A stretch of DNA of 64,000 bases from an uncultured Planctomycetales bacterium (GTDB lineage: Bacteria; Planctomycetota; Planctomycetia; Pirellulales; S012-138): positions 71,903 to 135,902 of the forward strand of contig CALBRZ010000133.1 of assembly GCA_937927735.1 (NCBI GenBank). The letters run 5' to 3'. Shown piece by piece: positions 59,844 to 62,702 of this stretch. A model generated the notes under the pieces. It searched no databases. It was not told the DNA's origin and was given only the letters and a program-made list of their open reading frames with translations. The translations under genes and the position numbers were made by a program. Numbering within the stretch: position 1 is the first letter of the stretch; each line of letters opens with the position of its first letter.

Positions 59844-61298
59844 TTACTGCTTGAGCGCGGCCAGCTTGTCGTCGCTCAACTGGTAAGCCCGAGCCCGGAA
59901 CAAGAACTCGACGATGTTGCCTTCGTGCGGCTGGAGCCAGTCGAGCTTGATCGTGGGGATGGGGCCGATGTTGAGCCGGTCGATGTGAACGGCATCGGTC
60001 AGTTCCTGCTGGAACTTCGGATCGTTGGTGATCGCCGTGCAGACCAGCGTGGGACCGATCGACTCGATCATCTTGTCCTGCGGACATTCCACCACGGTCG
60101 AGAAGGGGAACATGTACTCCTTCTTGGCGATGGAGTTTTCGGGCGACTTGCAGTGCACGATCGTCGGCCGCAGGTACGCGCAGCGTTCCTTCTCCACCAG
60201 CCGCGGGCCGTACTTCTCGGTGACGTGGGTCACGCCTTCCTCTTGCAGGTCGGCCTCGATCATGTCCCACACCAGGGCGCCCATGTTGCGGCCATTGATC
60301 ACCGCCGTGAACGCGGCCAGTCCGGCGTTGGGATCCTCGGGCGGCAGCACGTCGATCGGACCGATCCGCTCGGCGATGGCTTCGGCAATCTCCTTGGTGT
60401 GCCGAGATGCCCAGATGCCCGAGCAGTTGATGCAGCCGCGGCCGCTGTTGCGGTAGATGCTCTCGACCATCACGTCGAGGTACTTTTCCCACTCGTCGAC
60501 ACAGTCGTCGCCCAGCAGGATCTTGCTGAAGCCGGGACCGTGGGCCTGCACGCGGGGATTGCCACGGTAGCGTTCCACGGTGGGCGTGCCGCCGAAGATC
60601 ATGCTGCGATCGACGTGCTCCAGCACCGCCGCGCCCACGTCGGCGCCGCCGGGGTAGATGGAGATCACTTCAGGCGGAATGCCGGCCTCGACAAAGGCCG
60701 CCGCCATACGGTACGGCGTCCACGGCTCTTGCGGGCCGGGCTTGAGCACCAAGCCAATCTGCATCGGGATCACCGGCAGCCAGAGCGTGTGCACGCCAGG
60801 ACTGTTCGACGGCAACACCAGGCCCAGCACCGGCGACTGCGCCTGATAGCTCACGACCACGCCGCGGCTCTCGATGCCGTAACCGCGGCTCAGGATCTTG
60901 AGATCGAGGCCGCGCGTCAGCGCGTCGAGCATCCGGTCCATATTGGTCAACACGAAGTGGTTCTTCTCCATGTTGAACCGGCACATGTGCTCAGGCAGAC
61001 CGGTCGAAGCACTCTGCGACCGCACAAAATCGTCCGGGCTTTGGGTGCCATTGCCCAGCGGCAGGGTGCCGTTGAGATACAAATCGGCCGCCTTCTTGAC
61101 CCGCTCGATGAGATTTTCGGGCGGAATCTGGCGGAGCAGATCGCGAGCCCGTTTGGCGTGCCGCATGTCGCGAGCGAGCATGCCGGGGTTGGCCTGGCCC
61201 ACTTCGGCGATCACTTCACCGGTATTGAAGTGGACGACCTGGTCTTTCTCGAGCGAGTCGTACGGCTTACCCCAGCGGAGCACGGGAAGCGAAAACAT
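59844..61298 (-). CDS. Aldehyde dehydrogenase-superfamily protein, probably a thioester or acyl reductase type
   Basis: ATG at 61298 (MFSLPVLRWGKPY) with GGAG 9 nt upstream. ALDH blocks: LVLKPGPQEPWTPYRMAAAFVEAGIPPEVISIYPGG, IFGGTPTVE, and the catalytic Cys in NSGRGCINCSG (about 60418..60453). HGPGFSK occupies the position where ELGGK is expected. Confidence 0.75.
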   Translation of the reverse strand: MFSLPVLRWGKPYDSLEKDQVVHFNTGEVIAEVGQANPGMLARDMRHAKRARDLLRQIPPENLIERVKKAADLYLNGTLPLGNGTQSPDDFVRSQSASTGLPEHMCRFNMEKNHFVLTNMDRMLDALTRGLDLKILSRGYGIESRGVVVSYQAQSPVLGLVLPSNSPGVHTLWLPVIPMQIGLVLKPGPQEPWTPYRMAAAFVEAGIPPEVISIYPGGADVGAAVLEHVDRSMIFGGTPTVERYRGNPRVQAHGPGFSKILLGDDCVDEWEKYLDVMVESIYRNSGRGCINCSGIWASRHTKEIAEAIAERIGPIDVLPPEDPNAGLAAFTAVINGRNMGALVWDMIEADLQEEGVTHVTEKYGPRLVEKERCAYLRPTIVHCKSPENSIAKKEYMFPFSTVVECPQDKMIESIGPTLVCTAITNDPKFQQELTDAVHIDRLNIGPIPTIKLDWLQPHEGNIVEFLFRARAYQLSDDKLAALKQ

Positions 61299-61548
61299 GA
61301 TCGGGAACTCCTGCGGCCCCAGCGGCCGGCACGTGGTGTTGCAAACTCGCGTCTCGCGGCGGCCGACTCCGAGTTGCAAATGAACGGAGACAAAAACGCA
61401 ATCGATCGATGAATCCAAGCAGCAGCCGGCGTGCCCAGCCGCCGACCGAAATACCGCACCTGGCCGACAGAGCCGCTCCGGCCTGGCGCGGCAACAGCAG
61501 ACCATGCACGCGGGTGTGGTTCACCCGCGCAGCCACCATGGACAGCAA

Positions 61549-61578
61549 GCCGGGAGGGGCGATGCGCACCCTCCCGGC
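61549..61578 (-). terminator. Hairpin (terminator or attenuator candidate) between the ligase-like and ALDH-like genes
   Basis: A perfect 10-bp stem (gccgggaggg / ccctcccggc) with a 10-nt loop starts about 24 nt beyond the ligase-like stop. The downstream U-content is weak. Confidence 0.35.
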
Positions 61579-61601
61579 CCTTGGTTGTGTCCAGACAGCG
61601 A

Positions 61602-62702
61602 TCAGTACACGCCCACGGTCGTACCGCCGGGCAGCTTGCTGAACGGCCGCACGCCGCTCACGCCGTCCCAGGGGTACTTTTCGTAGGGCTGTTCGCGTTC
61701 GCCCTCGTCGCGTTCCAGGAAGCCGGGGATGAACAGTTCCTTGGTCATCGTGTACAGCTTCACGCGGCCGGTACCGCCATAGCTGACGATATCCAGGTGA
61801 TTGTTGGGGTTGACCACCTCGACCACGGCGCGAGGCTGCGGAGCGTAGTAGGTGATCTTGTAGCCGTCCTCGGCGGAGACTGGCTTGCTGCAGGCCAGCC
61901 CCATCAGGGTGTTGCCATAGGTCGGTGTCATGTACACCCGCTCGTCGAGGAACTCTTCCATGCAGAACCGCGTCCACTGCGGGGTGAACTCGGTGCCGCC
62001 GGAGAAGATGCCGGTGATGCCGACATCGGGGATGCTGGTGCCGCGCTTTTCCAGCTCCAGGGCCAGGGCCTCCAGCAACTTGGGCGTGGCAAACATGCAC
62101 TTGATGTCGTGATTGGCGGTCAGGATCGTCACCGCCTGATCGATGCAGTGCTGCTTGTACGCTTCCAGGTGCTCCATCCAGCCCTTCTTGATGAGCTTGA
62201 TCACCCAGCGCGGATCAAGATCGATGCAGAAGCAAATACCGCCCCGGTACTGGCACAGGTGCTCCACGGCCAACCGCAACCGACGCGGGCCCGAGGGACC
62301 GAGCATCAACCAGTTGCTGCCCTTGGGGAAGTACTCGTCGGGCAGCGTTTCACTGAACAGCTCGTAATCGATCCAGTGGTCCTCAACCACGACGCGGCTC
62401 TTGGGAATGCCGGTCGTGCCGCCGGTTTCGAACACGTAGATCGGCTTGTTCTGGAGCGGCTGCGGAATCCAGCGGCGAACGGGGCCGCCACGCAACCAGT
62501 CGTCCTCAAACAGCGGGAACTTCTTCAGATCGTCGAAGCACTTGATTTCCTTCAACGGATCAAACTTCAGTTCCTTGGCCTTTTCCAGCCAGAACTGCGA
62601 ACCGGTCGAAGGGTGAAAATGCCACTGCACGCACTCGACGGTGTGGGCATCGAGGGCTTCGCGCGCCTTCGCAACTGCGCTCTGGAGATCAACGGTGCTC
62701 AT
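61602..62702 (-). CDS. Adenylate-forming enzyme, PaaK / coenzyme F390 synthetase / LuxE-like (short ANL type)
   Basis: 366 aa. The P-loop-like motif is YVFETGGTTGIPKS (about 62398..62433). Further blocks are GIFSGGTEFTPQW and TPTYGNTLMG. Confidence 0.7.
   Translation of the reverse strand: MSTVDLQSAVAKAREALDAHTVECVQWHFHPSTGSQFWLEKAKELKFDPLKEIKCFDDLKKFPLFEDDWLRGGPVRRWIPQPLQNKPIYVFETGGTTGIPKSRVVVEDHWIDYELFSETLPDEYFPKGSNWLMLGPSGPRRLRLAVEHLCQYRGGICFCIDLDPRWVIKLIKKGWMEHLEAYKQHCIDQAVTILTANHDIKCMFATPKLLEALALELEKRGTSIPDVGITGIFSGGTEFTPQWTRFCMEEFLDERVYMTPTYGNTLMGLACSKPVSAEDGYKITYYAPQPRAVVEVVNPNNHLDIVSYGGTGRVKLYTMTKELFIPGFLERDEGEREQPYEKYPWDGVSGVRPFSKLPGGTTVGVY

Follow-up and report, generated by a model that had tools for sequence, protein, structure and literature searches.

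A predicted two-subunit carboxylate reductase of the EhpF/EhpG kind in Planctomycetota

Introduction

Two-protein carboxylate reductases of the EhpF/EhpG and GriC/GriD type, in which an adenylating enzyme of the ANL superfamily is paired with a reductase of the aldehyde dehydrogenase (ALDH) fold, have to date come up only in connection with a few antibiotic pathways, where they are discussed as tailoring steps. Bera and colleagues reportedly proposed in 2010 that EhpF and EhpG reduce phenazine-1,6-dicarboxylate to 6-formyl-PCA (PCA, phenazine-1-carboxylic acid) via an adenylate; the pathway in which the two proteins act in Pantoea agglomerans is that of D-alanylgriseoluteic acid. A 6-formylphenazine-1-carboxylate intermediate has been reported in phenazine tailoring (PMC11477647; PMC8950435). 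In the second described pair, GriC adenylates 3-amino-4-hydroxybenzoate (3,4-AHBA) and GriD reduces it to the aldehyde, the two together being called 'a carboxylic acid reductase' in the summary given by PMC10179220 (citing Suzuki 2007). By that summary, the two-protein design of ANL plus ALDH is already in the literature. Here we analyse two minus-strand genes, A and B (59844..62702), in a 64,000-nucleotide stretch of contig CALBRZ010000133.1 from an uncultured Planctomycetales bacterium (the whole stretch is called the window below), and we argue that their products probably work together as a carboxylate reductase of the same kind, with two subunits and a need for ATP and NAD(P)H.

Results

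Gene A matches EhpF from end to end

Gene A (61602..62702, minus strand) encodes a protein of 366 amino acids (aa), which we assign as an adenylating subunit of the EhpF/GriC type on the basis of its open reading frame (ORF) and its match to EhpF. Residues 9-359 of gene A aligned with residues 10-358 of EhpF in its crystal structures (3l2k/3hgu; E 1.6e-38), and the two proteins are equally long, at 366 aa each. The match to the Pfam AMP-binding model was weak (24.5 bits, under the cut-off), and all NCBIfam matches fell far under the family cut-offs, with best scores of 23-27 bits against cut-offs of 300-459. JGI auto-annotation names gene A orthologues 'PaaK-like adenylate-forming protein'. 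Some EhpF-family proteins carry the NCBI name 'arylcarboxylate reductase', a term that we did not find in the literature searched.

The nucleotide-binding motifs were located in a family alignment of nine members (gene A, EhpF and seven other relatives). The A3 phosphate-binding loop, FETGGTTGIPKS, occupies residues 91-102 (62397..62432, minus) and follows the family consensus E-T/S-GGTTGxP, with E92, G94, G95, T96, G98 and P100 invariant. The initial annotation, which was made from the sequence alone, had described a 366-aa product with an ANL-type phosphate-binding loop; the loop is there, and it is invariant in the family. The A5 motif YGNT lies at residues 262-265 (61908..61919, minus), and its Y262, G263 and T265 (YGxT) are invariant, as are E330, R331 and D332 of the A7-type ribose-binding Asp motif (61707..61715, minus). 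We chose the labels A5 and A7 by presumed likeness to the PaaK-type motif (xRD) of ANL enzymes. All nine proteins share the C-terminus ...GVY, in which Y366 is invariant, and gene A itself ends in ...EGVY. Because the protein stops shortly after the ERD motif, gene A consists of the ANL N-terminal domain only, without the C-terminal (A8-A10) domain.

Gene B is an ALDH-fold protein without the general-base Glu

Gene B (59844..61298, minus strand; 484 aa plus stop) is assigned as the ALDH-fold reductase subunit, of the EhpG type, from its match to Pfam PF00171 (E 2.4e-22), a structural model and alignments. Its start is the ATG at 61298 (MFSLPVLRWGK), where orthologues in most related loci align from residue 1, and an identical 484-aa protein is also called in public assemblies. 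The frame is open as far as 61505 (553 aa), and the 69 extra 5' codons (61299..61505) are not coding. Both ORFs of the initial annotation are thus present, with 61298 as the true start of gene B.

The ALDH blocks quoted in the initial annotation (LKPGPQEPWTP, FGGTPTVE, GRGCINCSG and HGPGFSK) all occur in the gene B translation. We read the active-site positions from alignments to a solved ALDH, 4o6r, and to HpaE. Cys289, in GRGCINCSG (60432..60434, minus), aligns with the catalytic nucleophile of both, and Asn165 (60804..60806, minus) is the equivalent of the oxyanion-hole Asn; these two residues are invariant in three family alignments. Glu394 aligns with the cofactor-ribose Glu and Gly236 with a cofactor-site residue, and both are conserved. 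Where the general-base motif ELGGK is expected, the two alignments place H253-GPGFSK259 (60522..60542, minus), with His253 on the general-base Glu, which agrees with the earlier reading of this motif. His253 is invariant in 76 planctomycete orthologues. At the same position EhpG has Gln and other family members have Leu, Arg, Tyr or His, and the general-base Glu is absent from every EhpG-type sequence examined.

The EhpG-type clade is further marked by xGPGxSK, PH(E/D)G and a 12-residue loop deletion, and gene B has all three. Matches of gene B to 27 NCBIfam families were all far under the subfamily cut-offs, and JGI auto-annotation calls its orthologues 'acyl-CoA reductase-like ALDH'. An AlphaFold2 model built on the alignment of 76 orthologues shows a complete ALDH fold (predicted local distance difference test, pLDDT, 90.6); an earlier model from a shallow alignment (pLDDT 58.5) was discarded. 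The best Foldseek matches of the model in the PDB were ordinary ALDHs (template modelling score 0.72-0.76, 14-19% identity), and no close solved relative was among them. A profile search aimed at diverse EhpG-like proteins returned mostly planctomycete sequences again.

The two genes are co-conserved in and beyond Planctomycetota

A genome scan with gene A matched more than 590 species, of which we kept 80 loci, all from Planctomycetota, with gene A identities of 74-86%; the locus counts below refer to this set. In 77 of the 80 loci, tblastn placed the ALDH gene next after the ANL gene and in the same orientation. For two of the other three, the sequence ends too soon to tell, which leaves one planctomycete locus (L070:3917-9779) with about 4.7 kb downstream of the ANL gene and no ALDH detected. 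With at least 8000 database relatives (E <= 1e-10) for gene A and as many for gene B, the observation of the two proteins is not a matter of chance. The best 120 relatives of each protein are 76-96% identical to the query. Among 1.84 billion cluster representatives the EhpF-like family is small (260 clusters at E <= 1e-30), and the planctomycete clade is by far its most populous branch. Two of the kept loci (L014 and L019) are contigs of a single Pirellulales metagenome-assembled genome (DASZUP01) with one copy of the pair each, which could reflect duplication or strain heterogeneity in the bin.

Outside the planctomycete set, the ANL and ALDH genes are adjacent in 11 of 14 contexts. These include the Pantoea ehp operon, whose proteins we confirmed to be EhpF (3HGU) and EhpG (Q8GPG9), a phenazine cluster on an E. 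coli plasmid, a phenazine-like cluster of Burkholderia ubonensis, a chorismate/para-aminobenzoate-type cluster of Streptomyces goshikiensis, a haloarchaeal Halalkalicoccus plasmid, where the pair adjoins a solute symporter and a short-chain dehydrogenase/reductase (SDR), and two outgroup contigs. The closest outgroup homologues (40-58% identity) are on short or frameshifted contigs or consist of the same pair alone.

Two natural fusions join an EhpF-like domain to a second enzyme, a class-III aminotransferase in one case and a Zn-dependent alcohol dehydrogenase (ADH) in the other (P0351 / L092:6001-9904 and P0385 / L094:5426-8965). In both, an EhpG-type ALDH gene begins within a few bases 3' of the fusion gene, and the cluster around the L094 fusion also encodes methyltransferases and a condensation-domain protein. 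Aldehyde-consuming enzymes are therefore physically joined to the activator in these genomes.

The initial annotation had proposed a split carboxylic-acid reductase. The idea is not new for such pairs, and for this one it is supported by the homology to EhpF, the Glu-less EhpG clade, the adjacency of the genes and the fusions. We looked for an intact general-base Glu in gene B, for PaaK identity of the small protein and for genes that are not co-conserved, and found none of these.

Genes that recur beside the pair in planctomycete relatives

In 25 of the 80 loci, the next gene downstream of the ALDH gene, in the same orientation, is one for a class III Fe-dependent ADH (Fe-ADH). In many planctomycetes it belongs to an extended string of genes for the ANL protein, the ALDH, the Fe-ADH, a secreted pyrroloquinoline-quinone-like beta-propeller, a HemN/HutW-like radical S-adenosylmethionine (radical-SAM) protein, a GcvH-like protein and a 360-aa protein with a 4Fe-4S dicluster domain (loci L003, L013, L018, L022, L024, L028, L029, L040, L042, L043, L059, L063, L064, L072, L078, L081, L082 and L085). 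In L003, squalene-hopene-cyclase-like and polyprenyl synthase genes follow the string. Over 16 genomes with the extended string, the ANL subunit (mean pairwise identity 77%) is more conserved than the neighbouring HemN-like radical-SAM protein (72%), and the means for the others are 67% for the ALDH, 62% each for the Fe-ADH and the GcvH-like protein, 54% for the Fer4 protein and 47% for the beta-propeller.

On the upstream side, a gene for a 296-aa alpha/beta hydrolase directly precedes the ANL gene on the same strand in 19 of the 80 loci, or in 21 if more distant or opposite-strand copies are included (loci L011, L023, L025, L027, L034, L039, L046, L051, L054, L060, L069, L074 and L076 are examples). 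Such a hydrolase could release the acid substrate from an ester. No biosynthetic genes recur beside the pair in the 80 loci, and the flanks vary. The family matches of the recurrent neighbours are generic and gave no clue to the substrate.

Proposed reaction and competing explanations

In the reaction that we propose, gene A would bind a carboxylic acid and ATP and form an acyl-adenylate. Because there is no C-terminal domain and no carrier protein, gene A should be unable to perform the usual thioester-forming second half-reaction; instead, the acyl group would pass to Cys289 of gene B with release of AMP, giving a thioester on the ALDH-fold subunit. NAD(P)H, held in the conserved Rossmann site, would then reduce the thioester to a thiohemiacetal, which would collapse to the free aldehyde. 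With His253 in place of the Glu that activates water, the acyl-enzyme should escape hydrolysis, and the ALDH chemistry would therefore run in reverse, much as it does when gamma-glutamyl-phosphate reductase (ProA) reduces an acyl phosphate. Where an Fe-ADH is encoded directly downstream, as in many relatives, this enzyme would take the aldehyde on to the alcohol. An aldehyde product fits this downstream Fe-ADH and fits the aminotransferase and Zn-ADH fusions as well. Homology, active-site pattern, co-conservation and domain fusions are observations, whereas we infer in which order and direction the steps run, which cofactor is used and that one subunit passes the acyl group straight to the other. 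A phenazine is probably not the substrate of the window pair. The very high conservation, with no biosynthetic cluster around, speaks for a common acid of the cell or its environment.

Several observations weigh against a carboxylate reductase of this kind. In canonical ANL enzymes, the catalytic A10 lysine is supplied by the C-terminal domain, and gene A has no such domain and hence no canonical A10 lysine for adenylation; the family-invariant Arg165 (in DPRW), Arg331 and Arg336 are candidate replacements. Identity to the described proteins is low (about 30% for gene A with EhpF and 20-22% for gene B with EhpG), and the clades are far apart. The 64-kb window contains no pathway context and no Fe-ADH gene, and the direction in vivo is deduced rather than seen. 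Finally, three Streptomyces EhpF homologues, which bear the NCBI name 'arylcarboxylate reductase', have no ALDH partner in the fetched DNA (L002:7938-9023, L098:6944-8029 and L099:6980-8062). Their neighbours are type I polyketide synthase or acyl carrier protein malonyltransferase genes, from which it follows that the ANL half can serve other acceptors.

These standalone homologues also speak for an alternative in which the ANL protein acylates another acceptor (an amine, a carrier protein or a hydroxyl) and the ALDH-like protein works on its own on a different intermediate, perhaps as a non-hydrolytic or CoA-dependent aldehyde dehydrogenase. It would suit this explanation that adenylates released by ANL N-domains can go to a variety of nucleophiles. 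It is nevertheless improbable: independent action can hardly explain an adjacency that holds in 77 of 80 loci and across phyla, the ALDH clade, with its two motifs and its loop deletion, is specific to this ANL clade, and the window has no carrier-protein or CoA-handling gene near the pair.

A second alternative keeps the two proteins together and runs them in the opposite, energy-conserving direction. An aldehyde, derived from an alcohol by the Fe-ADH, would be oxidised on Cys289 to the thioester, AMP would attack to give the acyl-adenylate, and the ANL protein would make ATP from pyrophosphate, which amounts to a CoA-free substrate-level phosphorylation. The absence of the hydrolytic Glu would be just as fitting in a non-hydrolytic ALDH that oxidises, the Fe-ADH downstream could supply the pathway just as well, the haloarchaeal homologue beside a solute symporter is in a catabolic-looking setting, and conservation at a housekeeping level would suit energy metabolism. 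The characterised relatives, however, start from the acid and make the aldehyde, as far as the published summaries of GriC/GriD and of the formyl-phenazine intermediate go, and the aminotransferase fusion and the biosynthetic-cluster settings point to aldehyde production. We know of no precedent for ATP synthesis by an EhpF/EhpG-type family, and we consider this direction very unlikely.

Scarcely credible is an ordinary aromatic-acid catabolic pair (PaaK with an aldehyde-oxidising ALDH) or a true LuxE/LuxC fatty-aldehyde pair, which the JGI names and weak F390-synthetase and DVU_1553 family matches of gene A might suggest, but which, judged by family membership, is already refuted by the lack of any PaaK match at E <= 1 or any LuxE or LuxC Pfam match, by the missing C-terminal domain of gene A and general-base Glu of gene B, and by the lack of paa, lux or fatty-acid genes beside the pair in the window.

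Flanks and regulation of the pair in the window

Genes A and B are separated by a 303-bp spacer (61299..61601, minus), which, by orthologue alignment, holds the spurious 5' extension of the gene B frame; in relatives the spacer measures from 6 to about 870 bp. Long antisense ORFs cover both genes on the plus strand (59778..61412 and 61431..62828). We regard them as spurious, as is usual in GC-rich DNA.

Downstream of gene B there is a terminator-like hairpin with a 16-bp stem, a 4-nt loop and a T-rich tail (59730..59765, minus), at the place where the initial annotation noted a terminator. It sits between two convergent genes, the second being a thioredoxin-like gene (59181..59660, plus strand) that converges on the pair from downstream. 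Upstream of gene A, a divergent intergenic region (62703..63142) separates the pair from a plus-strand DUF1501 gene with a twin-arginine translocation signal, which begins at about 63143. The initial annotation had called this region a divergent promoter; the divergent arrangement holds, but a consensus promoter scan found no sigma-70-type site. When the upstream region and the A-B spacer were compared with all loci by blastn, the sole conserved block was 56 nt long (62885..62831) and was shared with the closest relative only. Within it, the minus strand at 62870..62842 reads TTGTTT-17 nt-TATGTT, a possible promoter.

A search for riboswitches and other cis-regulatory RNAs with Rfam (E <= 1, over 59000..64000) gave only two sub-threshold matches, a fluoride riboswitch at 59415..59459 (minus; 17.4 bits against a gathering score of 34, E 0.25) and the Xoo2 small RNA at 59729..59794 (minus; 21.8 bits against 45), which overlaps the terminator hairpin. 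Both are most likely due to chance; a true riboswitch would have given a hint of the substrate. The A-B spacer had no Rfam match.

None of the neighbours that recur in relatives (Fe-ADH, propeller, radical-SAM, GcvH-like, Fer4 or alpha/beta hydrolase) is encoded in the window. The pair had been described as an isolated unit, which is correct for the window but does not extend to the 25 of 80 related loci in which the Fe-ADH gene follows on the same strand. Other neighbours in the window are a MORN-repeat protein and an FHA/T2SSE-type ATPase, with no evident tie to the pair. The latter (54477..56879, minus; 800 aa) has an N-terminal FHA domain, a T2SSE (type II/IV secretion ATPase) core, a Pro-rich linker and a C-terminal GYF_2 domain.

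Discussion

Significance of the planctomycete clade

It is in Planctomycetota that the family has its largest and best conserved branch, and there no pathway surrounds the pair. Its conservation and spread suggest an unrecognised core metabolism, or at least a widely needed one, in a poorly understood phylum. We can imagine, though we think it unlikely, that the planctomycete clade is not a tailoring system of secondary metabolism but a housekeeping route in Pirellulales-type planctomycetes, making an essential aldehyde or alcohol from a common and possibly non-aromatic acid. Such a route could replace or bypass a canonical reduction of an activated carboxylate, for instance one that depends on acyl phosphates or aminoacyl-tRNA, or, working backwards, it could oxidise an aldehyde without CoA and with a gain of ATP.

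A compact pair of two genes, with no carrier protein and no phosphopantetheinylation, would be an attractive acid-to-aldehyde biocatalyst if its substrate range were established. There are also structural questions, namely those of an EhpG-type subunit without a close solved structure and of adenylation by an ANL protein without its C-terminal domain. The interest of the pair rests on these questions and on an orphan, phylum-wide, highly conserved clade, not on the mechanism.

Comparison with known systems

Multidomain carboxylic acid reductases (CARs; EC 1.2.1.30; ANL-PCP-SDR reductase) carry out the same net reaction, from acid, ATP and NADPH to aldehyde via an acyl-adenylate. They combine a complete ANL of two domains with a phosphopantetheinyl carrier and a reductase of the SDR type, whereas the window pair has no C-terminal ANL domain, no carrier and a reductase of the ALDH fold, which would work through a Cys thioester. 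We rejected membership in this group, as neither protein has a PCP carrier or an SDR-type terminal reductase domain by Pfam. We likewise rejected an ordinary aldehyde-oxidising (hydrolytic) ALDH for gene B, which has the invariant His253 at the Glu position, and, for gene A, PaaK, whose model found no match and whose C-terminal domain is missing, and F390 synthetase (F390_ftsA, 23.5 bits against a cut-off of 458.7).

In LuxE/LuxC, an acyl group is activated with ATP, is handed to a Cys in a reductase of the ALDH superfamily and is then reduced with NADPH to the aldehyde; LuxE acylates itself before the transfer. This chemical logic is analogous to that proposed for the window pair, and the resemblance to a LuxE/LuxC-style module that the initial annotation had seen stands as a functional analogy. 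It does not stand as family membership, which we rejected: at E <= 1 Pfam gave AMP-binding for gene A and Aldedh for gene B only. The initial annotation was right that LuxD, luciferase and fatty-acid genes are missing beside the pair in the window.

ProB/ProA is a second functional analogue. There, a carboxylate is activated as a mixed anhydride, and an ALDH-fold enzyme without hydrolytic chemistry reduces it via a Cys thioester. Activation is by phosphorylation in ProB/ProA, whereas adenylylation is proposed for the window pair, and the ProA family is not among the 25 families listed of the 27 in NCBIfam that gene B matched.

Closer in kind is a pair on plasmid pSCAT of Streptantibioticus cattleyicolor (L100:7364-16319), in which an EhpG-type ALDH (24% identity) adjoins an EhpF-type ANL protein (30%). 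The order is reversed, ALDH then ANL, and the pair lies between B12-binding radical-SAM genes and an asparagine-synthase-like gene. We take it to be, probably, ThnO/ThnN of the thienamycin cluster. GriC/GriD of Streptomyces griseus, from the grixazone pathway, follows the same two-protein logic of ATP first and reduction second, a likeness drawn from the published description and from the NCBI name 'arylcarboxylate reductase' of some EhpF-family proteins. In the published description, the substrate is an aromatic precursor of a secondary metabolite and the genes belong to a dedicated cluster; the window pair has no such cluster.

The closest counterpart is EhpF/EhpG of Pantoea agglomerans. Like gene A, EhpF (3HGU, 3HGV and 3L2K) is an ANL N-domain only, and the two align from end to end. 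Like gene B, EhpG has the ALDH fold, keeps the Cys and the Asn, lacks the general-base Glu, and carries xGPGxSK, PH(D/E)G and the loop deletion, although its general-base position is Gln rather than His. In the ehp operon as in the window, the ANL gene precedes the ALDH gene. The window pair thus has all the features of the EhpF/EhpG type that can be read from sequence (an N-domain ANL protein, the motifs, a Glu-less ALDH and adjacency). EhpF and EhpG are encoded within a plasmid phenazine operon, whereas phenazine and chorismate genes are absent from the neighbourhood of the window pair, and embedding in an aromatic-acid (phenazine or 3,4-AHBA) biosynthetic cluster was found neither in the window nor in the 80 planctomycete loci. 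Such embedding concerns the genomic setting and not the mechanism. Compared with EhpF/EhpG, the planctomycete clade shows much stronger conservation and a much wider distribution, and what is new here is a pair with thousands of relatives, highly conserved in Planctomycetota, outside phenazine or aromatic clusters.

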